A DNA stretch of 64,000 bases, taken from Gemmatimonas sp. (GTDB lineage Bacteria > Gemmatimonadota > Gemmatimonadetes > Gemmatimonadales > Gemmatimonadaceae). Positions within the stretch are counted from its first letter, which is position 1. The number at the start of each line of letters is the position of its first letter. This document shows, one piece after another, positions 57 through 62,055 of the stretch. The DNA lies in contig JANNVQ010000045.1 in NCBI GenBank assembly GCA_031414535.1, positions 1 through 64,000 on the forward strand, written 5' to 3'. The position numbers were made by a program, and so were the translations under genes. The notes below the pieces were generated by a model that was not told the origin of the DNA, did no database searches, and saw nothing but the letters and a program-made list of their open reading frames with translations.

Positions 57-80
57 GCATCCGTCATCCGTCTTCCGTCC
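57..80. repeat. Heptamer array (GACGGAW family), locus 1
   Basis: GCATCCGTCATCCGTCTTCCGTCC, 5 nt past the gltA stop; 57-85 is identical to 8048-8076; GACGGACG at 1-8 may be the truncated partner arm. Confidence 0.85.
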
Positions 81-85
81 AGTTC

Positions 86-1426
86 TTACTTGAGCACCTT
101 ATGCGACAGGTTGATTCCCTTGCCCGGATAATCCCGCGTCGTATACCCGGTATAAATCTGCCGCGGCCGCGCAATCTTCTGCTCCTTGTCGAGCAGCATC
201 TCTTCCCACTGCGACATCCACCCAGCCGTACGCGCAATCGCGAATAGCACCGTGAAGTAGTCCGTGGGGAAGTGCATCGCGCGGTAAATCAGACCCGTGT
301 AGAAGTCTACGTTCGGGTAGAGCTTGCGCGAGATGAAGTACTCGTCGCTGAGCGCAATGCGCTCGAGCTCCAGTGCGATCTCCATGTCCTTCGACATGCC
401 AGCGACCTTGAGGACGTCGTCGCAGAGGCCCTTCACGATGCGGGCGCGCGGGTCGTAGCTCTTGTAGACGCGGTGACCGAAGCCCATCAGGCGCGAGGCG
501 CCCTTGCCGCTCTTCACGCTCTCGATGAAGGCCGGAATGTTCTTCACATCGCCAATCTCGTGTAGCATGCGCAGCACGGCTTCATTCGCGCCACCGTGCA
601 GCGGGCCGTACAGCGCGGCTACGCCAGCGGCGACCGCCGAGTAGGGATCCACGTGCGAGCTACCCACGGCGCGTACGGCGTTGGTGGAGCAGTTCTGCTC
701 GTGGTCAGCGTGCAGGATGAACAGGATATCAATGGCGCGGGCGTACACCGGATGCGCCTCGTACTTGGGCTCCGACATGCGCGCAATCATCGAGAGGAAG
801 TTCTCGGAGTACGATAGCGAGTTGTCGGGATACACATACGGCAGGCCCTTCACGTGACGATACGCGAACGCGGCCATCGTCGGCATCTTGGCGAGCAAGC
901 GGATGAACGCGATGTCGCGCTCACGTTCGTCGTAGATGTCCTTGGAGGTCGGGTAGAACGACGAGAGCGCCGCGACGCCGGCCGTCAGCATCGCCATCGG
1001 ATGGGCGTCGTAGCGAAAGCCCTCCATGAAGCGCTTGATGTTCTCGTGCACGTACGTGTGGTACGTGATGTGGTGCTGGAACTCGTCGTACTCGGCCTGC
1101 GTCGGCAACTCGCCCTTACGCAGTAGCCAGGCGACTTCGAGGAAGTTCGAGTGCTCGGCGAGCTGTTCGATGGGAAATCCGCGGTAGCGCAGGATGCCCT
1201 TGTCGCCGTCAATGAAGGTGATCGCCGAGCGGCATGACGCCGTGTTCATGAAGGCCGGGTCGTACCCCATGATGCCGAAGTCGTCGGCATTGACCTTGAT
1301 CTGCTTTAGATCGGCGGTGCGGATGGTCTCGTCAACAATCGGGGCGTAGTAAATCTTGCCCGTGCGCGAGTCTTTGATTTCGAGATGGTCGCCGGCAGGG
1401 GCGGCCGCGTTAGGAGTGCCTGCCAT
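86..1426 (-). CDS. gltA: Citrate synthase
   Basis: Motifs ILHADHEQNCST, GPLHGGANE, GFGHRVYKSYDPRA, YPNVDFY. Confidence 0.97.
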   Translation of the reverse strand: MAGTPNAAAPAGDHLEIKDSRTGKIYYAPIVDETIRTADLKQIKVNADDFGIMGYDPAFMNTASCRSAITFIDGDKGILRYRGFPIEQLAEHSNFLEVAWLLRKGELPTQAEYDEFQHHITYHTYVHENIKRFMEGFRYDAHPMAMLTAGVAALSSFYPTSKDIYDERERDIAFIRLLAKMPTMAAFAYRHVKGLPYVYPDNSLSYSENFLSMIARMSEPKYEAHPVYARAIDILFILHADHEQNCSTNAVRAVGSSHVDPYSAVAAGVAALYGPLHGGANEAVLRMLHEIGDVKNIPAFIESVKSGKGASRLMGFGHRVYKSYDPRARIVKGLCDDVLKVAGMSKDMEIALELERIALSDEYFISRKLYPNVDFYTGLIYRAMHFPTDYFTVLFAIARTAGWMSQWEEMLLDKEQKIARPRQIYTGYTTRDYPGKGINLSHKVLK

Positions 1427-1590
1427 TGTTCAGTTCCGGCTTGAGGTTTAACACCAACTGAGCCCTCGCATCGCTCGGACTCCGGGCGCGGACTCCGTTG
1501 TCGCGCCGCAGGAAATCTATCTCAGGAACCTGCCCAAATGGGTGGGCGGCCCGGACCTGTTTCCGTAACAGGCTGGCTTAAGTTCGTATC

Positions 1591-2382
1591 ATGGAATCCC
1601 CCGCCTTTCTCATCACTGTGGCCCTGGCGGCGGGGCTCGGCGCGATGATGAACGCCGTGGCAGGCGGGGGTACTCTGATCACCTTTCCGGCGCTTGTGGC
1701 GCTGGGGATTCCTCCCATCCAGGCCAACGCCACCTCCACCGTGGCGCTCTGGCCGGGGACCATGCTCTCCATGTGGGGCTACCGGAAAGAACTCGTCGGG
1801 GCACGCCGCTGGGCGATGGCTTTTGCGGTGCCATCCTTTGCCGGCGGAATCGTGGGCGCGCTGCTGCTGCTCCAGACTCCCGAGAAGCGCTTCGCCGCGC
1901 TCGTGCCCTGGCTGATTCTTGGCGCCACGGCCTTGTTCATCGCGCAGCGGCCGTTGATGGGGCTGCTCGCTGAGCGGGGGGGACTGAAGCGCGAAATCTC
2001 GGGGGCGGATGGGCACCTGCTCCCGCCGACGGCCACGTTTCTCGTCTATCAGTTTGGCGTGAGCATTTATGGCGGCTACTTCGGCGCGGGTGCAGGCATC
2101 TTGATGCTCGCCGCTTTGGGCCTGATGGGCCTGACGAACATTCATCAGATGAATGGCCTCAAGAACTGGGGCGGCGGCGTGATGAATCTCGTGGCCGTGG
2201 TCATCTTCTCCATCTCTGGCGTGGTCAACTGGCCGGTGGCGCTGGCGATGGCCGTGGGGGCCGCGCTCGGCGGCCTAGGCGGATCCTTGCTGGCGCAGCG
2301 TGTGGGTCAGGCGTGGGTACGCCGTGCCATCGTGACGATTGGCCTGGGCTCCGGGCTCGCGATGCTGTTTGGGCTCATCTAG
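1591..2382 (+). CDS. TauE/SafE (TSUP) family membrane protein
   Basis: NAVAGGGTLITFP and YGGYFGAGAG motifs; multiple TM helices. Confidence 0.9.
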   Translation: MESPAFLITVALAAGLGAMMNAVAGGGTLITFPALVALGIPPIQANATSTVALWPGTMLSMWGYRKELVGARRWAMAFAVPSFAGGIVGALLLLQTPEKRFAALVPWLILGATALFIAQRPLMGLLAERGGLKREISGADGHLLPPTATFLVYQFGVSIYGGYFGAGAGILMLAALGLMGLTNIHQMNGLKNWGGGVMNLVAVVIFSISGVVNWPVALAMAVGAALGGLGGSLLAQRVGQAWVRRAIVTIGLGSGLAMLFGLI

Positions 2383-2404
2383 CCGATTCGCCGCAAGCAT
2401 CTTC

Positions 2405-5308
2405 CTAGAGGAAGGGTTGGTAGCGCGGCTTCCACAAGCGGTCGTAGGTGATTCCAACGCGCAACTGGCTCGCCATCCCCGGCGCGAGACTTCCGGCCAC
2501 CTTCCCCTTGAAGAACATCAAGTCGGCGGAAACGGCCAGCGACAATTCGTCCACAAGGGGCACGACCACCTCGTGAATTTGGTTGTAGCGAAGTGCCAGA
2601 TTCGCATCGGTGTCGCGCGAGGCTGGAAAGAAATACGTCAGGTCGTTCACCAAGCGATAGCGTACGCGCCCGAAGTCCCGAGCCCCCGCCGCCCCGCCAA
2701 TCTGCCGCTCGTAGTCGCCTCGCGCCTGCACGCCGATCTGGGGATTGGGTCGCCCGTAATCGTTCTCCACGACAGCCGCGAGTTCCGTGCGCGGCCAACT
2801 ATCGGTTGGCGTGAGGAGGAGCCCCAAAATCCCGCGCAGCGAAAGCTGACGAGGATTCGGCAGTGCGGTGGCGGTGTTCTTCGTGGGACTGAACTCGGTA
2901 TCGAACAATGTGCGCACGAAGGGCTGGACGCGGCGCTCCTGCCACGCGCTCGACGGACGCAAGGTCAAGTCAATGCGGATGTCGTCCGCGGTCTCGACGA
3001 CGCGGTTGCTGCCCCCCGAAGTGAAATGCTGCTCGGCGAACGCGAGTCCAATGCCGAGGTCAGTCGCGACTCGGGCGCGGTCCTGAGACACGACAAAGCG
3101 TCCGCTCGCCCCAGCTACCCAGGCATTGTCGCCGACGATGCGGCTCTCGGGCACGTTCTCGTACCCTGTTCGCGTGGACACGGTATTCGTGGAAATCCAC
3201 AGCGTCGGGCGCTGGAAGATGAACGAGAAGAGCGGCTCGTATGGGGAATCTGGCGCGAGCATCGCGGCAATCGAATCCAGCTGCGCGGTTCCGCGCGCAA
3301 CGCTCCGCACCCTCCGCAACTCCGCAAGAACCCACGGCTTGATGGCCAATGCTTCACCACCGCGCGCTTTCGCCTCGAGCACCCCGCCTGCCCCAATCTC
3401 GAAATGCCGTCGGACCCGTCGCGCTCTCTTGAAGAATCGCGAACGAGCCCCTTCGTACAGCACGTCACTTGTCGCCACCCTATAAAAGGTGGCGCCATCG
3501 ATCTGGCGGCCGTTGATGGATGCAGCGGCGAAGTCAATGCCGCTGGTGGCAAGCTCGCCGCCCACATCGTCGCGCAAGAGGGCGAGCAGATCACTTCCCG
3601 GTAGATCCACGATGATGATCTCGTCCTCGGTCCACAGCCACTGACCGATCTCATTCTCGTGCAGCTTGCCGATGAGCGGTGGAAACTGATCGAGACGGCG
3701 AATCACCGCCGCCTCGGCACGGCCGCGCTGACGCAGCAGCCGTGCAAGGAAAGCCTCCCACATCGGCTTTGAAACCCGTCCCTGCGCGGTGACGGCATCA
3801 AAGTCCCGGAGCGCGGGACGTCGCTCCGCGAGATCGACGAAGGCTGGGAACATGAGCTCGCCTCGTGGCACTCGGTCTACGCTCACCAGACCCCGCAAGC
3901 GCCGGACGAAGGCCGTATCACTCGGCGTGTCATCGGTGACCATAGACAGCCGATGTTCAACCGCCGAGAGGAAGGCAGGTCCGCCAGTTGGTGGCGCGCG
4001 GAACTCCATATCCAATCGCCCGACGCCGATTCCGTTCGCGGCGCTGCGCGCGACGATTGCCGGCGAGCTCGGTCGCACGAAGGGACGGCTAGGAAGCTCC
4101 ACCCGCACGCGCCGATCTTCTGGCGCCGTGGCTGAGGGGAGGTCGGCGACGATGGCATCAATGCCCGGTACCTCCTCGGCGACCAGCGCGTTCTCGGATC
4201 CCGACATGTTGGAGAGGACCACGATTGCCGTCGCACCCTCCGCTTGGAGCGCGGCAACCTCTCGCCTCGCCGCCACTACTGGAGACTCGAAGGTGAATCC
4301 AGCCAGCGCGCTACGCGGCAGACGATCACGCACGGCGCGACCGACGAGGCCAAGGAACCCGATGCGCACGCTTCCTCGCTCGACGATGAGGCGCGTCCTG
4401 AACAGCGATGAATCCAGCGTCGCGACATTCGCAGCGAGCAGCGCAATCTCCGGAAAGGCCGTGGTCAGTTCAGCAAGGCCTGCGGCGCCGAGCCCCAGCT
4501 CGAATTCAAACGGCACGAGCATGGAGTATCCCAGTTCGCGGAGTGCGGTGAAGTCGAGACGGGCGCGGCTTGCACGCCCGAGTCCCACATCCGCGTTCTG
4601 ATGACCGAGGTCCACGGTGATGACATGGGAGGCTGGCCCGGCATCGTCAGCACGTAGTCGTGCGAGCAATGTGGCGCGGGGGCCGAGCTCACCGAGGTTG
4701 AGGGGAAGCTCAAAGAGCCGCGAGTCGAGGAGATCGAGGCGGTTCATCTCTCCGGTCGTAAATCCCGAAGTATCGAGCGGCCACACCGCGCCGGGCCGCT
4801 CGATGATGATGGCTCGGTCACCGCGAGCGGTCCGCAACCGCGATGCCCGCACGGTGGTGTGCACGAGATCGCCGAAGTCGCGCTGGCGACGGGGGTTGCG
4901 CTCGATCATCGCCAAGAGATCGGGCTGCGGGCGCCACGGATCCTGAATCAAGAGCACGTTGGCCGAGATCATGGCCGGCACCCGCGCGAGTTCCTCAGCC
5001 TGCGCCCGCTGGGCAATAATCTCCGCGAGTTCGTCTCCAAGCGGCTCTTCCGAGGGCAGGAAGATCACGATGCCAGGAGCGCGCCAAGCCAGATGCGATA
5101 CGAGCTTGAAGGGAACTGAGTCCGCGACGGCGACCTCGGCGAGCAACTCGTGCTCGTCTTGCGCACGCCGTGCCCCCATCGCGCCCAGCGAACGAGCCGT
5201 GTAGACGACCGAGACGCGGCTGGGTGGCGACTGTGCGCCGAGTCCCGAGCCGAGCTGAGCCAGCAGGAGGAGAAGGAGTCCGAGGCCGTTCACGTACCGG
5301 ATTGCCAT
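2405..5308 (-). CDS. Exported protein: degenerate 5'-nucleotidase (metallophosphoesterase plus C-terminal domain) fused to a probable outer-membrane beta-barrel
   Basis: Start trimmed to signal peptide MAIRYVNGLGLLLLLLAQ; UshA-like segments ALLAANV, VRIGFLGL, EVPGIDAIV, INGRQIDGATFYRVATSD; amphipathic beta-strand C-terminus. Confidence 0.7.
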   Translation of the reverse strand: MAIRYVNGLGLLLLLLAQLGSGLGAQSPPSRVSVVYTARSLGAMGARRAQDEHELLAEVAVADSVPFKLVSHLAWRAPGIVIFLPSEEPLGDELAEIIAQRAQAEELARVPAMISANVLLIQDPWRPQPDLLAMIERNPRRQRDFGDLVHTTVRASRLRTARGDRAIIIERPGAVWPLDTSGFTTGEMNRLDLLDSRLFELPLNLGELGPRATLLARLRADDAGPASHVITVDLGHQNADVGLGRASRARLDFTALRELGYSMLVPFEFELGLGAAGLAELTTAFPEIALLAANVATLDSSLFRTRLIVERGSVRIGFLGLVGRAVRDRLPRSALAGFTFESPVVAARREVAALQAEGATAIVVLSNMSGSENALVAEEVPGIDAIVADLPSATAPEDRRVRVELPSRPFVRPSSPAIVARSAANGIGVGRLDMEFRAPPTGGPAFLSAVEHRLSMVTDDTPSDTAFVRRLRGLVSVDRVPRGELMFPAFVDLAERRPALRDFDAVTAQGRVSKPMWEAFLARLLRQRGRAEAAVIRRLDQFPPLIGKLHENEIGQWLWTEDEIIIVDLPGSDLLALLRDDVGGELATSGIDFAAASINGRQIDGATFYRVATSDVLYEGARSRFFKRARRVRRHFEIGAGGVLEAKARGGEALAIKPWVLAELRRVRSVARGTAQLDSIAAMLAPDSPYEPLFSFIFQRPTLWISTNTVSTRTGYENVPESRIVGDNAWVAGASGRFVVSQDRARVATDLGIGLAFAEQHFTSGGSNRVVETADDIRIDLTLRPSSAWQERRVQPFVRTLFDTEFSPTKNTATALPNPRQLSLRGILGLLLTPTDSWPRTELAAVVENDYGRPNPQIGVQARGDYERQIGGAAGARDFGRVRYRLVNDLTYFFPASRDTDANLALRYNQIHEVVVPLVDELSLAVSADLMFFKGKVAGSLAPGMASQLRVGITYDRLWKPRYQPFL

Positions 5309-5424
5309 GCACAAGAATGCAGGTTTCGCCTCAAATCCGCGATGCGCGTGATTGAGGGTGGCCAACCAGCGGTAGCAGCAAGCACCGAGTCGCCTTTTGG
5401 CGGGCAAACGGGCAATCATTCCGT

Positions 5425-6894
5425 ATGACAGATTCGCCCGACAGCCCCGCCCCGCTCGACCCATCCGACTGGGAAGCCTATCGCGCCCTCGCCCACCGGA
5501 TGCTCGATGAGTCACTCGATCATCTGCGCGGCGTGCGCACGCGTCCCACGTGGACGCCAACGCCTGACGCAGTACGCGCCGAGATCAAGAACGAATCACT
5601 CCCGCGCCAAGGAATGGGCGACACCGCGGCCTACGATGACTTCGTGCGCCTTGTGCGCCCGTATCCCAACGGCAACATCGGCCCGCGTTTCTGGGGTTGG
5701 GTCATGGGCACCGGTACGCCGCAGGCGGCGATGGCGGACTTTCTCTCCTCGGTGATCAACCCGCAGATGGGCGGCCTCGACCACGCGCCCGTATACGTGG
5801 AGCAGCAGGTCATCCGCTGGTACTGCGAATTGATGGGATTCCCCGCGAGCGCTGGTGGCATTCTGATTAGCGGCGGAACGATGGCCAACGTGCTCGGCCT
5901 CGCCGTCGCGCGTCGGCAGCGCGCCGGCTGGGACGTGCGCGTGAAGGGGGCCTACGGTGGTCCGCCGCTGCGCGTGTATGCCAGCCAAGAAGTACACAGT
6001 TGGCTCAAGAAGACCTGCGACTTCCTCGGGCTCGGCGAAGAAGCCTTCCGCAAAGTGCCCGTGCACGACGACTACACGGTGAACGTTGCGGCAATGGAGC
6101 AAATGATTCACGAAGATCGCGCCGCCGGCTTGCAACCATTCTGCGTGATTGGCACCGCCGGAACCGTGCAAACCGGCGCGAGCGACGACTTCAACGCGCT
6201 CGCTGATCTCGCCGCACGCGAGAAGCTCTGGTTCCACGTGGATGGCGCATTCGGTGCCATGGCGAAGCTCGCACAGATTCCTGAGGCGCAGGCGGCGGTA
6301 AGTGGAATGGACCGCGCGGATTCCGTCGCGTTCGACCTACACAAGTGGGGCTATCTGCCCTTCGACGTCGCAATGCTCATCACGCGCGAGGACAAGCACC
6401 TCACGGAGACCTTCGCGAACCAAGCGCCCTACCTCACCTCGATGCCTGGCGGGCTCAACGCCAGCGGTAGCGTCTACTTCAACGACCGTGGCATTGAGCT
6501 CACACGCGGCTTCCGCGCGCTCAAAGTTTGGATGACGATGCGCGCCCAGGGCACGGATCTCCTCGGCGCACACATCGCGCGAAACATCAAACAGGCGCAG
6601 TATCTCGCGGGTATCGTCGCGAAGGAGCCTCAGCTCGAACTGCTGGCTCCAGTGCCGCTCAACTTGGTGAACTTCCGGTACAAGGCGGCGGGCCTGGATA
6701 CCGATGCGCTGAACGCGTTAAACAGAAACATCCTCGTGCGTCTGCAGGAGGATGGAATTGCGGTGCCGAGCGGTACGGTGATTCGTGGACAGTTTGCGAT
6801 TCGTGTCGCCATCACGAATCATCGGTCGGAGCAGAGTGACTTTGACGCGCTGGTGGCTGGCGTCCTCGACCTCGGACGCCAGCTGACCAAGTAG
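5425..6894 (+). CDS. Group II PLP-dependent (aromatic L-amino acid type) decarboxylase
   Basis: SGGTMAN, HVDGAFG, DLHKW (PLP lysine), RGFRALKVW. Confidence 0.92.
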   Translation: MTDSPDSPAPLDPSDWEAYRALAHRMLDESLDHLRGVRTRPTWTPTPDAVRAEIKNESLPRQGMGDTAAYDDFVRLVRPYPNGNIGPRFWGWVMGTGTPQAAMADFLSSVINPQMGGLDHAPVYVEQQVIRWYCELMGFPASAGGILISGGTMANVLGLAVARRQRAGWDVRVKGAYGGPPLRVYASQEVHSWLKKTCDFLGLGEEAFRKVPVHDDYTVNVAAMEQMIHEDRAAGLQPFCVIGTAGTVQTGASDDFNALADLAAREKLWFHVDGAFGAMAKLAQIPEAQAAVSGMDRADSVAFDLHKWGYLPFDVAMLITREDKHLTETFANQAPYLTSMPGGLNASGSVYFNDRGIELTRGFRALKVWMTMRAQGTDLLGAHIARNIKQAQYLAGIVAKEPQLELLAPVPLNLVNFRYKAAGLDTDALNALNRNILVRLQEDGIAVPSGTVIRGQFAIRVAITNHRSEQSDFDALVAGVLDLGRQLTK

Positions 6895-6901
6895 CCGCAG
6901 T

Positions 6902-7414
6902 CTAGAACTTGAAGCCGATGCCGAGCGCGAACCAGCTGTACTGGGGACCGCTCAAGCTCGACGTGTACGACAGCGTGGCTTCAAGATTCGGAATTCCGAA
7001 CGAAACCACCGGCACGAGCCCGAGCTTGTCCGCTTCCGTGATAAAGGCGCCTTCGAGACCGACGTCCAGTCCCGGAATCAACGTAAGATGCGGTCCGAAC
7101 TGAAGCGTGATGATGTCGAGGTCGTCGAAGAGGCTGGACTTGGGCGCGAAGCGCGTCCAGGTCGCGGCACCCATCAGCGACAAACGACCGACGCCCATCG
7201 GCGCGCCGATGCGGGTGTAAAGGCCAAACCCGTTGTCGTAGCCATTACCGAGGCTGTTGGTCGGCTCGGCGGTCTGGACGCCGATGCGGATGTCCATGCC
7301 TGGCATCTGGGCCTGAAGAGGCTGCGCGAGCAGCAAGAGGGCGACGACGGTCGCGGAGAGAGCTTGCGTGGCTCGCGTGCCGAGCTTCGCTGAGGTGCTG
7401 ATGTGGTTTTCCAT
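6902..7414 (-). CDS. Hypothetical exported protein, probable small outer-membrane beta-barrel
   Basis: Signal peptide ending LQA-Q, alternating beta-strand pattern, C-terminal LGIGFKF. Confidence 0.65.
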   Translation of the reverse strand: MENHISTSAKLGTRATQALSATVVALLLLAQPLQAQMPGMDIRIGVQTAEPTNSLGNGYDNGFGLYTRIGAPMGVGRLSLMGAATWTRFAPKSSLFDDLDIITLQFGPHLTLIPGLDVGLEGAFITEADKLGLVPVVSFGIPNLEATLSYTSSLSGPQYSWFALGIGFKF

Positions 7415-7497
7415 GCACGGATGTTACGCCGCGTCTGGAATGAGTTGGTATCGCTCGTTCGGGTGAGAAAGGATGGGTGTGGGGGACTACTACAGGC

Positions 7498-7968
7498 TCA
7501 GGGCTCGACGCCCGCGTGCTCGCACACGATTGCCCATTCCTTGGCGCTCACCGGCTGCACGCTCAGGCGCGAACCTTTCTGCAACAACACCATCTTTTCG
7601 AGGCCCTTGAGCTTCTTGAGCTCGGCCAGGCTGATCACCTGCGGCATCGCGCGCACCGCCTTCACATCCACCATGTACCAGGTGGGCTTGTCGGCGTCCG
7701 ACTTCTCATCGAAGTGCTCATGCCCTTTCTCGAAGGCAGTCCAGTCGGGATAGCCTTCCTTCGCCACTTCGCACACGCCGGCGATTCCACTCGGATCGGC
7801 ATTGGAGTGATAGAAGAAACAGCGGTCGCCCTTCTTCATTGAGTCGCGCAGCGTGTTGCGCGCCTGGTAGTTGCGCACGCCGTCCCAATAGGTGGTCTTC
7901 TTGGGGGACTTTTCGAGATCGGCGTAGGAGCACATCTCGGGCTCAGACTTGAGTAACCAGTAATTCAC
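7498..7968 (-). CDS. EVE domain protein
   Basis: YWLLKSEP, WDGVRNYQARN, FFYHS, RLSVQPV. Confidence 0.93.
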   Translation of the reverse strand: MNYWLLKSEPEMCSYADLEKSPKKTTYWDGVRNYQARNTLRDSMKKGDRCFFYHSNADPSGIAGVCEVAKEGYPDWTAFEKGHEHFDEKSDADKPTWYMVDVKAVRAMPQVISLAELKKLKGLEKMVLLQKGSRLSVQPVSAKEWAIVCEHAGVEP

Positions 7969-8005
7969 AGTTTAGAGCGTATTGAAAGAGTGGTGGTTGA
8001 TTCTT

Positions 8006-8071
8006 GGACGGATGACGGATGCTGCACGGTTATCGCCGTAGCAGTTAGCATCCGTCATCCGTCTTCCGTCC
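8006..8071. repeat. Inverted pair of heptamer arrays, locus 2
   Basis: GGACGGATGACGGATGC (8006-8022) and GCATCCGTCATCCGTCTTCCGTCC (8048-8071). Confidence 0.9.
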
Positions 8072-8091
8072 AGTTCATAAACGCGCAACGT

Positions 8092-9402: not shown

Positions 9403-9427
9403 CGCGATTCTCCGGTAGGGGGCAATC

Positions 9428-10588: not shown

Positions 10589-10596
10589 GCCGTCAC

Positions 10597-19935: not shown

Positions 19936-19949
19936 ACAAGCACAATCGA

Positions 19950-20003
19950 ATTCGTGGCGATTTCGAGGCAACTTGCGGCCACGTAAAACATTCAGCTAAA
20001 GCG
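19950..20003 (+). ncRNA. SAM-II (SAM-alpha)-type riboswitch
   Basis: P1 CGTGG (19953-57) / CCACG (19979-83), conserved GATTT and TTGC, A-rich linker, 3' GCTAAA; leader of metF-metH. Confidence 0.85.
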
Positions 20004-20054
20004 CCGGCCCGGTGTGCCTCCTCGCTCCGGGCCTTCGTGCTTTCAGGAACCACA

Positions 20055-20972
20055 GTGCAAACGAATCCCGCGCAGAATCCGGCGCCGTTTCAGATTTCGT
20101 TCGAGTTCTTCCCGCCCAAGTCGGAAGAGATGGAAGCCACGCTATGGCGCTCCATCCAGCGATTGGCTCCCCTGGCACCGCACTTCGTATCGGTGACCTA
20201 CGGCGCCGGCGGCTCCACTCGCGAGCGCACGCACCACACGGTGCATCGCATTCTCCAAGAAACGCCCCTCGTGCCCGCCGCGCACCTGACCTGCGTGGCC
20301 GCGACGCGTGAGGAGATTGACGCCGTCGCCGACGACTATTGGAACGCCGGCGTACGGCACGTGGTCGCGCTGCGCGGTGACATCCCCGGCGGCGACGCGC
20401 CCTACTTCCCCACGCCAGGCGGCTACTCCTACGCCACAGAGTTGGTGGAAGGCCTGCGCAAGCGTCGAGACTTTGAAGTCTCTGTGGCCGCGTACCCGGA
20501 AGTGCATCCTGAGGCAAAGTCTGCGCAGGACGACATGGACAACTTGAAGCGCAAGTTGGACTCCGGTGCGACGCGCGCGATCACGCAATTCTTCTTCGAC
20601 AACTGGGCCTATCTGCGATTCGTGGACCGCGCACGGAAGGCTGGCATCACCGCGCAGATCGTCCCTGGCATCATGCCGGTCACGAACTTCACGCAGACGG
20701 CCAAATTTGCGAAGATTGCCGGCGCAACCATTCCCGCCACCTTCGCGAAGCACTTTGAAGGCCTTGAGAATGATGCCGAGACGCGGAAGCTGGTGTCCGC
20801 GTCGCTCGTCGCCGAACAGGTCACCCAACTCGCGCAGTCGGGCGTGAAGGAATTTCACTTCTATACGTTGAATAGGGCAGATCTGACCTATGCTATTTGC
20901 CACTTGCTAGGCTTTCGGCCAGGAAGTGGACGGATGACGGATGACGGAAGCGACCAGCGGGTGGGCGTATGA
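20055..20972 (+). CDS. metF: 5,10-methylenetetrahydrofolate reductase
   Basis: [44 protein letters not shown] start after AGGAA. Confidence 0.96.
20928..20950 (+). repeat. Heptamer array inside the metF 3' end, locus 3
   Basis: GGACGGATGACGGATGACGGAAG, translated GRMTDDGS. Confidence 0.85.
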
Positions 20973-23900: not shown

Positions 23901-24682
23901 ACCTGTTTGCGGATGCGCGGGCGATGCTGGAAAAGATTGTAGATGAGAAATGGCTTCGTGCTCGAGCGGTCGTCGGGTTCTTTGCTGCGCATTCCGATGA
24001 TGCGGAGCAGATTCACCTTGGACGGAAGACGGATGACGGAAGCTTTGATCGGCTCGCGACCGTGCAGACGATTCGTCAGCAGATGGTGAAGAACGACGGG
24101 CGTGCCAACGTTGCGCTCGCCGACTACATCGCGCCGGAATCCTCAGGGGTGCAGGATTGGCTGGGTGGGTTCGTCGTCACCACGGGCATCGGTCTGGACG
24201 AGAAGGTGGCGGAGTTCGAGGCCACAAACGACGACTACTCGAGCATCATGGTAAAGGCGTTGGCGGATCGTCTCGCCGAAGCCTTTGCCGAGCGGCTCCA
24301 CGAAAAGGTGCGTCGCGAGCTGTGGGGCTACGCGCCCAACGAGCATCTCGACAACCAAGCCCTCATCCGCGAGCAGTACCAGGGCATCCGCCCGGCGCCA
24401 GGCTATCCGGCATGCCCAGACCATACGGAAAAGAAGACTTTGTTCGACATTCTCGACGCCGAGCGACTGGGTGGCGTACACCTCACCGAGAGCTACGCCA
24501 TGCATCCCACCTCGGCGGTGGCTGGTTGGTACTTCGGGCATCCAGACGCGCACTACTTCGGCGTCGGGAAGATCGAGCGCGACCAAGTCGAGGCCTATGC
24601 GGCGCGCAAGGGAGTCAGCATCACCGATGCTGAACGGTGGTTGGCACCAATCCTAAACTACGACAAGCCTCCCCAAGGCTGA
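20969..24682 (+). CDS. metH: Cobalamin-dependent methionine synthase
   Basis: [42 protein letters not shown]. Confidence 0.98.
24020..24042 (+). repeat. Heptamer array in frame inside metH, locus 4
   Basis: GGACGGAAGACGGATGACGGAAG (GRKTDDGS); exact reverse complement of 62033-62055. Confidence 0.8.
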
Positions 24683-27122: not shown

Positions 27123-27209
27123 GGACGGAAGGCGGATGATGGAAGCTTGTTGGGCGCGCCTTGCTGAGCGGGGCGCGCCCTTCTTGCATCCGTCATCCGT
27201 CATCCGTCC
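27123..27209. repeat. Inverted heptamer arrays enclosing a hairpin, locus 5
   Basis: GGACGGAAGGCGGATGATGGAAGC (27123-46) and GCATCCGTCATCCGTCATCCGTCC (27186-209); the right arm contains the symporter stop codon. Confidence 0.88.
27152..27185 (+). terminator. Intrinsic terminator-like hairpin
   Basis: GGGCGCGCC / GGCGCGCCC stem followed by TTCTT, between convergent genes. Confidence 0.65.
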
Positions 27210-29048: not shown

Positions 29049-29106
29049 ATGACGGAAGGAGAGCGCCTTGGCTCCCCTTCCGTCATCCGCGTTCCGTCAT
29101 CCATCC
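29049..29106. repeat. Degenerate inverted heptamer arrays, locus 6
   Basis: ATGACGGAAGG (29049-59) / CCTTCCGTCAT (29076-86) plus TTCCGTCATCCATCC abutting the M14 stop. Confidence 0.75.
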
Positions 29107-48005: not shown

Positions 48006-48132
48006 GGACGGATGACGGATGACGGATGCAGTCGGCGCTGCGGAACTCATGCGATTCCCGAGAGTTCGTACATTGTCGCTTCCGTCTTTCCGTCCCAATC
48101 GTGCGTTAGCATCCGTCATCCGTCATCCGTCC
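48006..48132. repeat. Perfect 24-bp inverted pair of heptamer arrays, locus 7
   Basis: GGACGGATGACGGATGACGGATGC (48006-29) / GCATCCGTCATCCGTCATCCGTCC (48109-32), plus internal CTTCCGTCTTTCCGTCC. Confidence 0.92.
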
Positions 48133-50999: not shown

Positions 51000-51006
51000 A
51001 AGCGGC

Positions 51007-51098
51007 AAGATGGAAGACGGAAGGCACAAGCGAAACGCCGCCCGTCTTACTAGATTTTTCGTAGTTCCCTTCCGTCATCCGTCTTCCGTCATCTGTCC
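51007..51098. repeat. Inverted heptamer arrays, locus 8
   Basis: AAGATGGAAGACGGAAGG (51007-24) and CCTTCCGTCATCCGTCTTCCGTCATCTGTCC (51068-98), 4 nt before the PPIase ATG. Confidence 0.85.
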
Positions 51099-51102
51099 GC
51101 CA

Positions 51103-51561
51103 ATGAAGATCGCTACCTTCGAAACCAACAAAGGCACCATCACCGCCGAGCTCTATGAAAAAGACGCTCCGGGCACGGTCGCCAACTTCGAGAAGCTTGC
51201 CAACGAAGGCTTCTACGACAGCATCCGCTTCCACCGCGTAATCCCGGAGTTCGTGGTTCAGGGTGGTTGCCCCAACGCCAAGATCGGTGGCACGCCCAAG
51301 GGCCCGCCGGGCACCGGCGGTCCGGGCTGGACCATCAAGTGCGAGACGGACGGCAATCCGCAGACGCACAAGATCGGCGCACTCTCGATGGCGCATGCCG
51401 GCAAGAATACCGGCGGATCGCAGTTCTTTATGGTACTCAGCGAAGCCAATACCAAGCACCTGAATGGTGTGCACACGGTGTTCGGCCAGATTACTGGCGG
51501 CCTCGACATTATGAACACCCTCACTGATCGCGACCACATGGTCAAGGTGCGTGTATCATGA
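51103..51561 (+). CDS. Cyclophilin-type peptidyl-prolyl cis-trans isomerase
   Basis: [34 protein letters not shown]. Confidence 0.95.
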
Positions 51562-51728
51562 CCGCTGGAACTCCAATGACAGGCCGCGACACCAAGGCCC
51601 ACCTAACCGGCTTCGCCGTCGGTCTCGTCGGCATCGCCATCGTGGTGCTTGCGCTGGTTTACCTCACCAACAAGAAGTTCGCGAGTCACGCTGAAGAAGG
51701 CGCCGCGGCGACCTCAACGCAGCACTAA
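51558..51728 (+). CDS. Small single-TM protein (56 aa; not in the ORF track)
   Basis: Read by hand: [60 protein letters not shown] overlap with the PPIase stop; alternative ATG at 51576. Confidence 0.75.
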
Positions 51729-51732
51729 ACGC

Positions 51733-53646: not shown

Positions 53647-53788
53647 CCCCCTCGTCGTCGTGCACCGCCCGCATCGCTGGCGTCGTTAGGTCATCAAACT
53701 GCCCCGAGCGCGAACTCCACACGTACGCGCCCACAAAAATCGCGACCAGCAGAATCGCCAAGGGAACCAGCACAAAGAGCACGCTCAC
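53612..53788 (-). CDS. ccoS: cbb3 oxidase maturation protein CcoS
   Basis: TM helix then WSSRSGQFDDL. Confidence 0.9.
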   Translation of the reverse strand: MSVLFVLVPLAILLVAIFVGAYVWSSRSGQFDDLTTPAMRAVHDDEGVSVPPQPPEAR

Positions 53789-56229: not shown

Positions 56230-56932
56230 GAGCCGCGTCAGAAGTTGGAGCCTGAGCCGCGCTGGCAGGCGTGAAGCGGCCCGCCACCGTGAGCACGCCG
56301 AGAATCACGAGCACGCTTGCCGTCACAAGAGGCAAACGCCTGCGAAAGCGTCCAAGCAGGCGCTGTGCACCGAGACCAACGGCCGCCATCAGCGGGACCG
56401 TGCCAAGCCAGAATGCGGCCATGACGGTGGCACCGGCCAAAGCGGAACCCGCGGCAGCCGACGTCGCCACAAACGCATACAGCCAACCGCAGGGTAAGGC
56501 CGCTGACAGCGCGCCGATTGCCAGCGCGCGAATTGCTGGCGGCCGCTCCTGCACCGCGCGCACCGCTCGCGCCACACGCGACGCCAGCGCCGGCGGAACG
56601 TCGAGCATCGGAATGCGAACCCCGAGTGCCGCAGCGAGCGAAGCAACACCCCAGAGAATAAGCAGAGTCCCTGCCACCACCGCCGCAGGACGCGCCAAAC
56701 CAGCCACGGCTCCAGCGCGATCTAACCCCGCGCCCGCGGCCCCAGCCACCGCACCAAGCAGAGCGTAAGAGAACAATCGCCCGAAGTTGTACGCGGCCGT
56801 CGAGCGCAACGCCCGCGGCCCCGCGCTGCCATCACCGCCGGATGCGAGGCAGGCAAAGCTCCCGCACATGCCGGCGCAGTGTACGCTGCCGAGCAATCCC
56901 GCCACAAACACCGAACTCGCGAGCGCAATCAC
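56207..56932 (-). CDS. DsbD_2/TauE-like membrane protein of the cbb3 assembly cluster
   Basis: HCAGMCG, YNFGR, LPCGWLY, FWLGT. Confidence 0.88.
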   Translation of the reverse strand: MIALASSVFVAGLLGSVHCAGMCGSFACLASGGDGSAGPRALRSTAAYNFGRLFSYALLGAVAGAAGAGLDRAGAVAGLARPAAVVAGTLLILWGVASLAAALGVRIPMLDVPPALASRVARAVRAVQERPPAIRALAIGALSAALPCGWLYAFVATSAAAGSALAGATVMAAFWLGTVPLMAAVGLGAQRLLGRFRRRLPLVTASVLVILGVLTVAGRFTPASAAQAPTSDAAHVHNAQP

Positions 56933-57393
56933 GGCGACTCGGCCTGCTGGGTGCTCTCAAAGCGATCTGCGCCACGGCGTGCTACGACGCGGACTTCCCA
57001 CAGCCCACTCCGGTGCGCGGGCAACTCAACCGTGTATGCGCCGGCGCCCGCCGACTGGAGCGTCACCACCATCGGTGTAGACGCCTCACGATTGTGGATC
57101 AGGGTGGCCGTGACGGCGGCATCCTCAATGGCGAGGCCGCTCGAGTCTACCATCTGCACGTTCAGACTGCCGGGCGTGTCGCTCAGCGATACACGTGAGG
57201 TCCAGCCAAGCGCAACGCTCGCCGAACGCCGCGCCATGGTGCGATCCCACTCCACAGCCTTCCGGTAGTAGTCGGGCTCCACCACCGTGCCATTGGGATC
57301 CGCCTTCGCGGCGTAGAGCATCACGAAGTTCACGCCTACCGTGAAGCCAAGCGCCAGCGTCACGAGTACCGGCCACTGCCAACCACGCTTCAT
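56929..57393 (-). CDS. ccoH: FixH/CcoH family protein
   Basis: WPVL TM helix, VEPDYYRKA, GLWEV. Confidence 0.85.
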   Translation of the reverse strand: MKRGWQWPVLVTLALGFTVGVNFVMLYAAKADPNGTVVEPDYYRKAVEWDRTMARRSASVALGWTSRVSLSDTPGSLNVQMVDSSGLAIEDAAVTATLIHNREASTPMVVTLQSAGAGAYTVELPAHRSGLWEVRVVARRGADRFESTQQAESP

Positions 57394-58793
57394 TTGGGCT
57401 CCACGGAAGGCGTACGCACGGACGGTCCTGGAAGCCGCCACGAGAACTCGCTCTGGTACTTGCCAGCATCGTCGAACCTGAATCGCACGCGGCGCTCACC
57501 AGTCGCAAAGCGATCCGCATCCTGCACCACAAATACCGAGGTCGTCACCGTTCCTCCCGCTGCCACCGGCAGTGGGTTCTGCGGAGCAATCAAGGTGGCA
57601 CCCGGTTCATCGATGTACGCGATGCTGTACCGCTGATCCGCGCCCGAGCGATTGGTGATCTTGATGCGCACTTGGTTCACGATCTTGCCGTCCGCCTCGC
57701 GCGTAAATGGCGCTCCGATAGGCCCGAGGAGCGTGACGTCTGCCGCCGAGCGCGAGGCGAGGGCCAAGAGGAAGGCACCGAAGAAGCCGAGGAAAGCCAG
57801 CGGGTACAGAACCGTGCGCGCTCGCAAAAACTTTGGCGGATTGCCCGAGAGCGAGTCCTGCGAACTGTACCGAATGAGACCCGCCGGCTTACCCACCTTC
57901 TCCATGATGGAATCGCAGGCGTCGGCGCACTGCGTGCAATGGATGCACTCCATCTGCAGTCCATCTCTGATATCAATGCCCGTAGGGCAGGTGTTCACGC
58001 AGGCATTGCAGGATACGCAATCGCCAAGCCCGGGGCGTGCACCGCTGCCGTGACCGCGCGGTTCACCGCGAGTCTTGTCGTAGGCCACGATGACGGACTG
58101 ACGGTCCAGCAGCGCGGATTGCCAACGTCCGTAGGGGCAGGCCACGAGGCAGGTCTGCTCGCGGAACCACGTGAAGTCCAGAAATACCGCGAATGACACA
58201 CCCGCCATGACCAAGAATGGTGTGGGATGCTCCGCCGGCGACTGCGACACCCAGCGCATCAGGGCGTCCGTACCCACGAAGTACGCGAGGAACGTATTGC
58301 CCAGCACCACAGCCAGCACACCGTAGATCGCGTACTTGAGGAGCCGCCGCGGCGCCAAGTGCCGCTTGTCACGATCCAGCGTGCGCGAAGCATTCGGACC
58401 ACCCTCCACCAAGCGCTCGATAGGACGAAACAAGAACTCCATCCACACCGTTTGCGGGCATGCCCAGCCGCACCACACGCGGCCAAACAAGGCCGTGAGC
58501 AAGAAGATGAAAACCAGCACGCTCACGAAGAGCAGCATGAGTAGCAACGTGTCTGTCGGCAGGAATGTCGTACCGAAGAACGTGAACTCACGATGCGGCA
58601 GATCGAGCAGCATCCACGGCTTGTCGTTCCACCGCAGATGCGGAAACGCGAGATAGAACGCCATCAGCGCATACGCCACCACCTGTCGGCGAATCAGCCA
58701 CTTGCCCGGCGCGGGCTTGGGGCGAATCCACCGGCGTGAGCCGTCCTCGTTGAGCGTCGCGAGAACACGACCCGTGGCGACCGGTGCGCTCAC
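57390..58793 (-). CDS. ccoG: Cytochrome c oxidase accessory protein CcoG
   Basis: GRVWCGWACPQT, CPYG, CVSCNACVNTCP, CIHCTQCADAC. Confidence 0.95.
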   Translation of the reverse strand: MSAPVATGRVLATLNEDGSRRWIRPKPAPGKWLIRRQVVAYALMAFYLAFPHLRWNDKPWMLLDLPHREFTFFGTTFLPTDTLLLMLLFVSVLVFIFLLTALFGRVWCGWACPQTVWMEFLFRPIERLVEGGPNASRTLDRDKRHLAPRRLLKYAIYGVLAVVLGNTFLAYFVGTDALMRWVSQSPAEHPTPFLVMAGVSFAVFLDFTWFREQTCLVACPYGRWQSALLDRQSVIVAYDKTRGEPRGHGSGARPGLGDCVSCNACVNTCPTGIDIRDGLQMECIHCTQCADACDSIMEKVGKPAGLIRYSSQDSLSGNPPKFLRARTVLYPLAFLGFFGAFLLALASRSAADVTLLGPIGAPFTREADGKIVNQVRIKITNRSGADQRYSIAYIDEPGATLIAPQNPLPVAAGGTVTTSVFVVQDADRFATGERRVRFRFDDAGKYQSEFSWRLPGPSVRTPSVEPK

Positions 58794-59410
58794 TTATCAC
58801 TCGTCGGCGCCGGCGGTGCTACTGACGCCGCGGGCGGTGCCGCCCCGTCCACTGGCACCGGACCTTCCTGGGCCTTGGCGTCGGGCGGGTTGCTGCCCCG
58901 TAACGAGAGCACATACGCCGTCACGTGATTCAACTGCCCTGGCTTCAAGATGCGCTCCCAAGGCGGCATCCCCTTGGCGAGTACACCCACAGCAATCGTG
59001 TTGTGCACCTGCGAAGGCGAGCCGCCGTGAATCCACGCGTCATCCGTGAGGTTGGGGCCAATGAGGCCACCGCCGTCAGCACGATGACAGGCAGCGCAGT
59101 TCGCAGTAAAGACGGTCTTCCCCTCGGCGAGTGCATCATCATCGTCCGCCAGCTCTTCGAGTTCCTCGTCGGAGATTGCGGACGCAAGCGCCGAGGGCGG
59201 CCGCTCGGCGGCATACTTGGCAACGTCGGCCTCATACTGGGCCACGTTCCCCGGCCCCTCACCGAATGGCTCTGGTAGGAAGTAATAGAACGGCGCCCAG
59301 ATCACCGTCGCCCAAAAGATCCACACCCACCAGCGCGGCAACGGATTGTCGTACTCCTGGATTCCGTCGTAGGAGTGGTCCAGAAGCTTGTCGTCGTTTT
59401 GTTCAGGCAT
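58790..59410 (-). CDS. ccoP: cbb3 oxidase subunit III (single heme c)
   Basis: HSYDGIQEYDNPLPRWW; one CAACH; GPNLTD, MPPW. Confidence 0.92.
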   Translation of the reverse strand: MPEQNDDKLLDHSYDGIQEYDNPLPRWWVWIFWATVIWAPFYYFLPEPFGEGPGNVAQYEADVAKYAAERPPSALASAISDEELEELADDDDALAEGKTVFTANCAACHRADGGGLIGPNLTDDAWIHGGSPSQVHNTIAVGVLAKGMPPWERILKPGQLNHVTAYVLSLRGSNPPDAKAQEGPVPVDGAAPPAASVAPPAPTSDK

Positions 59411-59603
59411 TGTTGGAAGAACTCCCGTTGGGGATGTCCGCATCATCTTGGAGCGGCAGCTGGGCCGCGCGCGCCATGCGCTCACTGCTGCCAGGAGCGA
59501 GAATCATCATCACGACCATCAGGAAGGCCGCCACGAACAGCAGCAGCGCAACGATGGCATAGCCAGAGAGCCCTGAGGCACTCATCACGTCTACGAGCTT
59601 CAT
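59403..59603 (-). CDS. ccoQ: cbb3 oxidase subunit CcoQ
   Basis: Single TM then AAQLPL; between ccoO and ccoP. Confidence 0.8.
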   Translation of the reverse strand: MKLVDVMSASGLSGYAIVALLLFVAAFLMVVMMILAPGSSERMARAAQLPLQDDADIPNGSSSNNA

Positions 59604-61822
59604 GGCGTCGCTCCTGGCGCAACCGCGCTTGGCGCGGCGAGACGCGGCGTTGCCGCGGCCACGCCAGGCGTCTTGATGTCGCGACCCAAACGTTGCAGGT
59701 AAGCCACGAGCGCAATCACCTCCTTGTCAGCGAGTCCGGTGGGCCCACCCTGCGCCTCAATTCCCGCGGCAATCAGCGTCGCTTGCTCACGCGCCATCTG
59801 CGGCGCGCGGTTCACCGCCTCCCCGTAGGGCACGCCGAGCATCACCATCGCGTCCACGCGCTTCTGAATGAAGTCAAAGTCCAGTGCGTTGCGCTCGAGT
59901 TGCGAATACGCAGGCATGATAGAGTTGGCCACGATTGCCCTAGGTTCCGCGAAGTGGCGCACGTGCCAGAGGTCGGGGTACTTGCCGCCGACACGCGCGA
60001 GGTCGGGACCTATACGCCGTGAGCCCCAGAGAAAGGGATGGTCGTACACGAACTCACCTGGCTTCGAGTACTCACCAAAGCGTTCCGTCTCGTAACGCAA
60101 GGGTCGCACCATCTGCGAATGGCAATTGAAGCAGCCTTCGCGGATGTAGAGATCGCGGCCCGCCAACTCCAGCGGCGTGTACGGCTTCACGCTGGCAATC
60201 GTCGGCACATTGTTCTTGATCAAGAAGGTCGGGATGATCTCCGCGAGTGATGCAACGACCACGGCGAGCACCGTCATCACGGTGAAAAGCAACGGCAGGC
60301 CTTCCCACTTGCGGTGCCAGCGCGCCGACGTGAAGCGCGCAAACACACCACCCGTCGCGGGCGCATGCGCCGCTTCCGGATATCCCTTCGAGAGCGGCGG
60401 CGCCGAGACCACGGCCACTTGGTACGTGGCCGGCCGCGCCTTCCAGGTCATCAAGATGTTGTAGATGAAGACCAGCGTGCCGATGATGTATAGCGTGCCA
60501 CCCGCCACGCGCACCCAGTACATCGGCATCAACTTCATCACTGTCTCAACGAAGTCCGGATACGCCAAGCGTCCCGTCTCGTCGAAGGCGCGCCACATCA
60601 GCCCCTGCGTAATGCCGGCAGAATAGATGCTGGCCACATAGAGCAGGATGCCAAAGGTCGCGATCCAGAAGTGCAGTTCGGCAAGCTTCTTGGAGTGCAG
60701 CGGCGCTTGGAACAAGCGCGGCGCCAGCCAGTACACCATGCCAAAGGTCATGAAGCCGTTCCAGCCCAGCGCGCCGGTGTGCACGTGCGCGATGATCCAG
60801 TCCGTGTAGTGCGCCAACGCATTCACGCTCTTCACCGAGAGCATCGGGCCTTCGAAGGTGCTCATGCCGTAAGCCGTGATGGCTACGACAAAGAACTTGA
60901 GCACTGGCTCGTCCGTCACCTTGCTCCACGCGCCGCGCAGCGTGAGCAAACCGTTCACCATGCCGCCCCAACTCGGCATCCACAACATCACGGAGAACAA
61001 CATGCCCAGCGTGCTCGCCCAGTCCGGCAGTGCGGTATAGTGCAGATGGTGCGGCCCTGCCCAGATGTACAAAAAGACCAGTGACCAGAAGTGCAGAATG
61101 CTCAGCTTGTATGAAAAGACCGGTCGGTCCGCCGCCTTCGGCATGAAGTAGTACATCAAGCCGAGGAAGGGCGTGGTGAGGAAGAACGCCACCGCATTGT
61201 GGCCGTACCACCACTGCATGAAGGCGTCCTGCACGCCGGCGTAGATGCTGTAGCTCTTCAGCCACCCAGCGGGAACGCTCAGGTTGTTGAAGATGTGCAG
61301 CACCGCGACCGTCACGATGCTGGCGATGTAGAACCAGAGCGCGACGTAGATGTGTCGCTCACGGCGCCGTGCCAGCGTGCCAAAGAAGTTCACCGCGAAG
61401 GCCACCCAAACCACCGCGATGGCGATGTCAATCGGCCACTCGAGCTCGGCGTACTCCTTGGCCTGCGTGAAGCCCAGCGGTAGCGTCAGCGCCGCGGCGA
61501 TGATGATTGCCTGCCAGCCATAGAAGTGGAAATTGCTCAAGCCGTCGGAGAACATACGCGTCTTGAGCAGTCGCTGTGTTGAGTAAAAGATGCCCGTGAA
61601 GATCGCGTTGCCCGCAAACGCGAAGATCACTGCGTTCGTGTGCAGGGGCCGCAGGCGTCCGAAGCTCAGCCAAGGGACGTCGAAGTTGAACCAAGGATTC
61701 GCGAGTTGCAGCGCGATCAGCAACCCAACCAAGAATCCGACGAGTCCCCAGACCACGGTCGCCCATAGAAACTTGCGGACGATGGCGTCGTCATAGGAAA
61801 AGTCTTCGAGATGCACACTCAT
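59600..61822 (-). CDS. ccoNO: Fused cbb3 oxidase subunits I and II (CcoN-CcoO)
   Basis: RPLHT, WWYGHN, GPHH, IAHVH, then GCFNCHSQ and GPDL in one ORF. Confidence 0.96.
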   Translation of the reverse strand: MSVHLEDFSYDDAIVRKFLWATVVWGLVGFLVGLLIALQLANPWFNFDVPWLSFGRLRPLHTNAVIFAFAGNAIFTGIFYSTQRLLKTRMFSDGLSNFHFYGWQAIIIAAALTLPLGFTQAKEYAELEWPIDIAIAVVWVAFAVNFFGTLARRRERHIYVALWFYIASIVTVAVLHIFNNLSVPAGWLKSYSIYAGVQDAFMQWWYGHNAVAFFLTTPFLGLMYYFMPKAADRPVFSYKLSILHFWSLVFLYIWAGPHHLHYTALPDWASTLGMLFSVMLWMPSWGGMVNGLLTLRGAWSKVTDEPVLKFFVVAITAYGMSTFEGPMLSVKSVNALAHYTDWIIAHVHTGALGWNGFMTFGMVYWLAPRLFQAPLHSKKLAELHFWIATFGILLYVASIYSAGITQGLMWRAFDETGRLAYPDFVETVMKLMPMYWVRVAGGTLYIIGTLVFIYNILMTWKARPATYQVAVVSAPPLSKGYPEAAHAPATGGVFARFTSARWHRKWEGLPLLFTVMTVLAVVVASLAEIIPTFLIKNNVPTIASVKPYTPLELAGRDLYIREGCFNCHSQMVRPLRYETERFGEYSKPGEFVYDHPFLWGSRRIGPDLARVGGKYPDLWHVRHFAEPRAIVANSIMPAYSQLERNALDFDFIQKRVDAMVMLGVPYGEAVNRAPQMAREQATLIAAGIEAQGGPTGLADKEVIALVAYLQRLGRDIKTPGVAAATPRLAAPSAVAPGATP

Positions 61823-61994
61823 TGACCCGGCTCCGGCTGGGTGGGGGATTTCGCCGCGGTCACTCGACCTCCGGCGGCATGCCGCAGATAACACTCCTTT
61901 AGAGGAAGGGCTCAGGTAGTCAGCGAGATGGAGGAAGTTGGGTAGGGTATTTCCGCACACCCCAGAGCGCCGACGCTGAGCGATCTCACCTAAG

Positions 61995-62003
61995 TGCTAT
62001 ATT
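61995..62003 (+). promoter_or_regulatory. Putative extended -10 element for the HD gene
   Basis: TGCTATATT about 55 nt upstream of ATG 62058. Confidence 0.4.
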
Positions 62004-62032
62004 CCCAGCGAGTTATGAAGCAGTTGCCCGAT

Positions 62033-62055
62033 CTTCCGTCATCCGTCTTCCGTCC
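62033..62055. repeat. Solo heptamer array, locus 9
   Basis: CTTCCGTCATCCGTCTTCCGTCC ending 2 nt before ATG 62058. Confidence 0.85.

Follow-up and report, generated by a model that had tools for sequence, protein, structure and literature searches.

In the genome of a Gemmatimonas sp. (assembly GCA_031414535.1; 3.70 Mb, 64% GC, 98% complete, hereafter G000), hundreds of short tandem arrays of the heptamer GACGGAW are placed with a common polarity at gene boundaries, and one pair of these arrays encloses a gene for a four-helix-bundle protein of family PF05635. In the clearest cases among the related genomes, the unit of such arrays appears to track the allele of this gene and not the species tree, which hints at the protein as the chooser of the repeat that is written. 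The window analyzed here is the 64,000-nt stretch given by positions 1 to 64,000 of contig JANNVQ010000045.1 (C45). Genes were called anew from the sequence, so that start positions are approximate; R denotes the GACGGAW strand of an array, or arm, and Y its complement. The genomes used for comparison are metagenome-assembled, with contamination of up to 7%, and profile searches for PF05635 and RNase III covered 41 genomes of the order.

The bracketed PF05635 gene lies outside the window at C27:29657-30248, antisense between hppA and ychF and within a GACGGAW pair, in line with the co-occurring four-helix-bundle gene that a first-pass annotation of the window had suggested looking for. To our knowledge, no function of PF05635 has been established outside diversity-generating retroelements (DGRs). 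The cassette protein has a match (E=5e-13) in PDB 2GSC, a five-chain entry that is reported to be homologous to Avd, and the closest cassette genes among named records are from Gemmatimonadaceae. Within the genus, the gene is found at hppA-ychF in 18 loci of 17 genomes, and in G020, where a contig ends, ychF alone is seen. Purifying selection acts on the gene (within type, dN 0.06-0.22 and dS 1.1-2.8), and a terminator-like hairpin between the cassette arms is kept across unit types. PF05635 is present in 35 of the 41 genomes searched; most of the loci inspected carry inverted arrays of 7-9-nt units (none evident at L050), and in other families of the order the genes occur at many places, again mostly with inverted arrays. 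Altogether, three repeat families of G000 each bracket a small gene of their own with the same polarity, as a second PF05635 gene is flanked by GAAGAGC arms and a GxxExxY (PD-(D/E)XK) gene at G000:C24:46997-47368 by 9-mer arms, the latter possibly representing a parallel system with a candidate nuclease. In public runs, which gave contigs only and of which those with a small share were set aside, joints across the cassette were due to other hairpins mapping onto the cassette.

The cassette arms are built from different units in different genomes, i.e., GACGGAW (A), GACKTGA (B), AGGTGTR (C), TCAGGTR (D), TGAARGM (E), AGYTGKR (H) and one further unit in G020, and the correspondence between these six lettered units and the alleles can be read as a specificity matrix. 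In the gene tree, the B, E and H alleles group with 96-100% support, and approximately unbiased (AU) tests reject three of six clades of the host tree, namely G010+G011 (p=7e-5), G018+G005+G006 (p=0.0024) and G024a+G004, the last being possibly a binning artefact. In the opposite direction, unlinked host markers from the window region reject the E (p=1.6e-5), H (p=9e-9) and D arm-type clades, and rpoB rejects those of E (p=7e-56), H (p=1.5e-49) and A. For genome-wide counting, the six unit patterns were derived from the cassette arms, by which design each is found at least once and the counts include the cassette. Exact trimers were found as follows: G000, A 239 and B 3; G024, A 94; G012, B 172 and A 8; G004, B 83 and A 52; G023, A 156 and B 53; G017, A 117 and B 17; G010, C 59 and E 2; G011, E 108 and C 2; G022, C 16; G007, C 9; G008, D 23 and C 14; G001, D 6 and H 5; G005, E 14; G006, E 9 and H 5; G018, H 11; G015, H 7. 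The cassette unit is thus the commonest of the six in 14 of the 16 typed genomes. As the patterns are cassette-derived, low counts include the cassette and some units are uncounted, the strong case is made by the sister species G011 and G010, in each of which the dominant unit matches the own allele. Furthermore, GACGGAT arms accompany the two new alleles that are closest (89 and 79% identical), and of 24 congeners 7 contain the A trimer, which was seen in none of 16 further genomes from the order. Candidates for unit-specific residues occupy seven columns, which are confounded with allele ancestry.

In the window, 23 matches to GACGGAWGACGGA with at most one mismatch compare with 0.18 in dinucleotide shuffles, none of 100 shuffles reaching 23, and all nine loci of the first-pass annotation are present within 1-2 nt of its positions. 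Genome-wide, GACGGATGACGGA occurs 402 times versus about one expected from a fifth-order Markov model, and 59 times within called coding sequences (CDS) versus 0-2 in ten synonymous-codon shuffles. Among 13-mer counts, GACGGAW reached 403 and seven permutations of the unit 3-20 each, and an eighth permutation, at 80, corresponds to a second, real family. GACGGAT is by a large margin the most frequent tandem heptamer of the genome. No Rfam family matched any arm. Among further abundant repeats is a non-tandem family containing ATAACGACGCTTGCTG with about 46 copies genome-wide, which may resemble attC sites.

GACGGAW arms number 367 (183 and 184 by strand; 267 trimers) and sort into 128 R...Y pairs and 111 solos, leaving 256 arms with a local partner. 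The order had been described as never reversed, and this holds nearly throughout the genome: among neighbors no more than 200 nt apart, R is followed by Y in 124 of 137 cases and Y by R in only 1 of 117. On the sense strand, the 305 arms with an exact 13-mer comprise 120 R after a stop, 65 Y before a start, 18 Y after a stop and 4 R before a start, with 28 inside called CDS; the 87 unpaired arms among them show 29, 28, 16 and 3 in the same classes. Since R after stops and Y before starts in pairs follow from the R...Y order, only solos provide an independent polarity test. In 54 of 69 cases, their outer end and a gene end are no more than 20 nt apart (null mean 27.5, maximum 38 in 5000 draws). 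A genome-wide, polarized boundary family, as proposed from the window, is supported, and the rule is that the outer arm end abuts the gene end and the arm points into the spacer, also in solos. Two arm pairs among tRNA genes have the same geometry as those at protein genes, indicating that ribosomes are not required. The other two families conform as well. No exception was seen among the GAAGAGC arms (12 R after stops, 12 Y before starts, 11 R...Y pairs), and the 9-mer arms, for which 120 matches exist genome-wide, comprise 74 R after stops, 5 Y and 1 R before starts and 47 pairs.

Arm ends are in a fixed register, with an outer G in 85% and an inner G in 97% followed by C in 78%, and define a unit of about 24 bp, G-(GACGGAW)3-GC, of the type that brackets the PF05635 gene at hppA-ychF. 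The first unit has A in 43 of 85 after-stop arms versus 11 of 49 before-start arms (p=0.002); this bias matches the two cassette ends, although selection against AUG after stops could produce it as well. Paired arms are no more alike than arms from different elements (mirrored variant bases in 2 of 83), and 81 three-by-three pairs gave no sign of mirror copying or of compensatory change between partners, with a marginal result for the inner 8 nt (p=0.04).

All 19 genomes compared have TAGATT upstream of the ppiA-like gene, against a background of 0.02 per kb in the window. Its distance to the ATG is 6-8 nt in the three arm-free species (G003, G009 and G012) and 41-102 nt in the remainder, where carriers hold a Y arm between TAGATT and ATG and some also an R arm upstream, each with its own unit. 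The same pattern of arms around a kept -10-like box is found at polX, where a hexamer similar to TACATT precedes the start by 5-10 nt in 16 of 20 relatives. The -10 consensus and the spacing of leaderless genes are the basis for reading TAnHHT in this way; across G000, this motif peaks 6 nt before called starts (123 of 3075 genes; 5-7 nt in 204 of 3075), a leaderless-like signature that suggests many leaderless mRNAs, and of 65 Y-before-start arms, 21 have it 3-30 nt upstream, versus 1 of 120 controls. Of the spacers of pairs, 9 of the 13 convergent, 12 of the 34 tandem and none of the 7 divergent ones hold inner hairpins, and some pairs enclose recX, an Rdx gene or a tRNA. Given such native DNA, the pairs are not all emptied cassettes.

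In the variable loop of MetH, the same codon position holds an A trimer in G000, G017, G023 and G024 and a six-unit B array in G012, with unrelated sequence in 11 other aligned relatives. This would fit overwriting in place, independent insertion or gradual change also being possible. The metF arm site has A units in two relatives (G017, G023) and B units in one (G012), while G009 and G019 carry other units and G024 none. Generally, the sites occupied by arms vary widely among congeners.

Some further features were noticed. R arms appear to provide start codons, in an ATGA stop/start overlap before recX (G000:C32:3829-3849) and as the ATG of the Rdx gene (C10:57783). After recA, a G+C-rich stretch (G000:C32, about 2500-2580, L056) flanked by two arm pairs is near-identical in G017 and G008; it has no Rfam match and is possibly a non-coding RNA.

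The reading that we favor, an even call in our judgment, is that host enzymes copy arms from a master as specified by the allele, with selection acting as the filter. An oligomeric PF05635 protein would recognize the cognate strand with its 7-nt period, as suggested by the Avd homology together with the phylogenetic pattern, and host recombination or repair enzymes would copy the master's arms to new sites or on top of older arrays, at times as a complete hairpin of 51 bp and frequently one arm at a time. A new allele might enter by homologous exchange through hppA and ychF, whereupon its unit would spread and replace the old one. Selection would retain those copies that spare promoters, terminators and reading frames, and such selection for harmless copies would result in gene-edge positions and in trimers, which with 21 nt keep one open frame. 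More speculatively, the purine-first order could result from selection against C-rich RNA left unpaired behind a stop, as this would load Rho; Rho prefers C-rich RNA and is present in G000. Another strong Rho-like match, which scores below the curated threshold, is located at G000:C24:27920-28987.

In a wider generalization, which is tentative and rather doubtful at present, PF05635 proteins would be specificity factors of a widespread repeat-writing system needing neither reverse transcriptase (RT) nor transposase. At hundreds of gene edges, an allele arriving at one locus would then place the 7-mer arm of its own type, overwriting older arrays in place, even inside coding loops, and turning leaderless genes into leadered ones. 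This would also account for the lineage-specific heptamer arrays that have been a long-standing question in bacterial genomes, and would give Avd an ancestral role. A protein directing the copying would represent a new route for spreading and rewriting repeats, and one that only binds would define a rapidly reprogrammed RNA-binding regulon.

Several observations weigh against allele-specified copying. AU tests with the gene tree do not reject the host clades G007+G015 (0.063) and G008+G020 (0.21), nor do they reject G000 with the B clade (p=0.18), so that allele exchange is not shown for G000 itself, and rpoB does not reject the D clade (0.135). G017 and G023 have B arms at the cassette, yet A trimers outnumber B trimers in both. 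Trimer counts are low in G001, G006, G007, G015 and G018, two of which (G007 and G015) have further units elsewhere that were not counted. G024 has two loci with the four-helix-bundle gene between hppA and ychF (L048 and L049), one with a ychF near that of G004 but with an A-type allele and arms, possibly due to contamination or a further allele swap. Hybrid A/B arrays exist and fit gradual point change as well, and spacers at solo Y arms are marginally shorter than those at solo R arms (p=0.052). In addition, the hairpin at C14:292722 is a whole insertion relative to G017 and G024, and opposite the window pair at 27124, which provides the stop codon of the SSS gene, the corresponding spacer is only 1 bp in G020 and 5 bp in G001. 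Finally, a catalytic partner was not found, binding and copying being deduced from homology and from the distribution of units.

Regarding such a partner, RAYT or Y1 transposases, which the first-pass annotation had named as one gene family to look for, were not found in G000 and five relatives and were therefore dismissed. A DGR-like retrohoming partner was likewise discarded, as the only RT of G000 is retron St85-like (G000:C9:45658-46524, L053), and lies beside an HTH gene in an island, and as no RT was found in five of five carrier relatives searched, one of which is 96% complete in three contigs. Consequently, the dedicated writer or mobilizer envisaged to be encoded elsewhere did not emerge from these searches. 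RNA processing, as another proposed role, is unlikely to proceed via RNase III: TIGR02191 was found in only 1 of the 41 genomes, on a 1.5-kb contig and not in G000, although many of these genomes are 95-100% complete, and PF00636 in none of five near-complete genomes. Long stems in RNAs are therefore probably not cut, as the intervening sequence (IVS) of 23S rRNA is, and this may be a reason for their accumulation.

Among other explanations, the pairs could be deletion derivatives of arm-gene-arm, comparable to MITEs, the miniature transposable elements with inverted repeats, and moved whole by some enzyme, with solos as decayed pairs. The hairpin insertion and the short junctions described above are in favor of this, as are the 18 of 128 pairs that are minimal hairpins with a 9-nt spacer and the many locations of PF05635 genes in other families of the order. 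However, terminal inverted repeats are the feature shared with MITEs, whereas the interior does not derive from an autonomous element: 87 spacers contain no cassette remnants beyond three 11-nt matches but instead context-matched native DNA such as the inner hairpins and the invariant TAGATT. Moreover, a target-site duplication is not clear (11% versus 6.9 ± 2.2% in shuffles), and solos retain the boundary-proximal arm. On this evidence, emptied cassettes are an unlikely origin of the family.

We are more skeptical still of a regulon in which the protein acts post-transcriptionally and the arrays are its binding sites, arising from slippage and tuned by selection to the resident allele. Y arms do lie in 5' leaders downstream of -10-like boxes, genes flanking arms have higher codon scores (p=7e-12), the homologous Avd pentamer is described as binding RNA (10.1101/2023.10.23.563531), and a role of this kind was proposed for TAACTGA repeats (MacGregor, 2015; PMC4679880). 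However, fixed ends and shared flanks indicate copying, occupied sites differ between congeners as noted, and arms also occur between tRNA genes and inside CDS. Little credence can be given to neutral heptamer satellites homogenized by ordinary gene conversion, with the four-helix-bundle gene hitchhiking between two arms. In their favor, units are one to two substitutions apart, hybrids exist, and polymerase slippage is invoked for heptamer excess in the discussion of Rehm et al. (2015; PMC4692102), but an imported cassette, as one site among hundreds, should convert to the resident unit, and in G011 the clade of the allele, the unit of its arms and the unit found genome-wide match one another and contradict the species tree. 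The initially considered long-range mRNA pairing, in which Y before a start and R after a stop would pair across the gene and close or mark the mRNA, is permitted by strand complementarity and polarity but as a general rule largely refuted, and highly improbable, because both arms occur at 5 genes versus 2.5 expected (p=0.11), with 1 among solos, and most arms have a local partner.

Allele-specified copying has to be seen against known repeat systems, from which the arrays with their polarity (published heptamers) and the arms around such an open reading frame (ORF; one IVS) are already known. GGGAATC in Xanthomonas and GGGGA(C/T)T in Nostoc form dispersed heptamer arrays for which the article presents no settled function; their G-rich strand is found up to 50 bp after stops on the coding strand or up to 50 bp upstream of ORFs on the non-coding strand, and in Xanthomonas inverted pairs of convergent orientation are frequent (Rehm et al., 2015; PMC4692102). 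GACGGAW is likewise dispersed, over-represented and mostly intergenic, with its purine strand after stops and antisense before starts and with convergent pairs. The preference for four units with G3 tracts reported there is not shared by GACGGAW, and as the latter has GG runs only and favors three units, the reading as a G-quadruplex of four G-tracts is not directly transferable. Nor does the article text link those heptamers to a protein or to unit turnover, the word "helix" being absent from it. TAACTGA sets of Beggiatoaceae end a few nucleotides before start codons in one orientation (MacGregor, 2015; PMC4679880) but, unlike GACGGAW, show almost no inverted pairs, and four-helix proteins are not mentioned in that article.

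A close counterpart of the cassette is the 23S IVS of Coxiella burnetii, described as an S23p ORF in terminal inverted repeats with tandem GACAGAT/GACAGAA of variable unit number in the stem (Warrier et al., 2016; PMC4990558), i.e., one base from GACGGAT/GACGGAA; for Leptospira, horizontal transfer at a fixed site is cited in the same article. The arrangement of a PF05635 ORF within terminal inverted repeats is shared. In contrast to an IVS in a 23S rRNA helix, the cassette is antisense to the protein genes between which it lies, and purifying selection acts on its ORF; moreover, no RNase III was found, and gene-less arms are scattered in the hundreds. With repetitive extragenic palindromic (REP) elements and REPINs of the RAYT system (PMC3733652), the arrays have in common their abundance as intergenic palindromes, a family-specific gene flanked by repeats and rare in-frame copies, and the same source mentions CGTC-tagged REPs without known transposase. 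REPs are described there as self-folding hairpins of 20-40 bp with one unpaired tag, GTAG or CGTC, whereas a GACGGAW arm, being a tandem array, needs another arm as its pairing partner and has CGTC within the stem, and no Y1 transposase was found. Avd of DGRs is reported to be pentameric, to bind RNA and to support templated DNA rewriting (PMC10053308; 10.1101/2023.10.23.563531). Its fold is homologous to the PF05635 protein, which suggests that the latter may bind repeat RNA, but Avd works with an RT. Novel are the link between allele and unit against the species tree, the unit differences at orthologous sites and the native DNA within pairs; in open-access full text, no paper was found linking genome-wide heptamer families to PF05635 alleles. 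Genes flanking the repeats are listed in the supplements of Rehm et al. (2015) and MacGregor (2015), which may be relevant to how new the allele-unit link is.

The arms of the window are compiled in Table 1. Two of the initial assignments had to be revised, as the arm at 59-79 is not solo but has its partner on contig C21, the reverse complement of which overlaps the window start by 54 nt, the pair enclosing a terminator-like hairpin, and as the partner in the pair at 29051 is degenerate, with one exact unit and degenerate flanks.

Table 1. Arms of the GACGGAW family and associated -10-like hexamers in the window.
Feature	Position	Strand	Context
R trimer	59..79	-	6 nt after gltA stop (gltA 86-1426, minus)
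R2...Y3 pair, 29-nt spacer	8007..8070		21 nt from aminotransferase stop (8092), 38 nt from EVE-domain gene start (7968)
Solo R trimer	20929..20949	+	final codons of metF, 23 nt before stop
Solo R trimer, in frame (7 codons)	24021..24041	+	variable loop of MetH
R3...Y3 pair	27124..27208		between convergent acyl-CoA dehydrogenase and SSS genes, around terminator-like hairpin
Degenerate pair	29051..29105		R arm 1 nt after M14 peptidase stop (minus), short partner
R3...Y3 pair	48007..48131		6 nt after stop of 47545 ORF, 5 nt before polX start
TACATT, -10-like hexamer	48069..48074	+	within 48007 pair; putative promoter element
R2...Y4 pair	51009..51097		9 nt after TonB_C gene stop, 5 nt before ppiA-like start
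TAGATT	51051..51056	+	within 51009 pair; putative promoter element
Solo Y trimer	62034..62054	+	3 nt before HD-domain gene start; 30 nt downstream of TATATT (61998-62003)

Two further features of the window were noted. Upstream of metF-metH, a SAM-alpha riboswitch match (RF00521, 40.8 bits) is located at 19944-20019 (+), and metF probably starts at 20055. Between ppiA and a P-type ATPase gene, a 50-aa ORF at 51576-51728 (+) is conserved across the aligned congeners.

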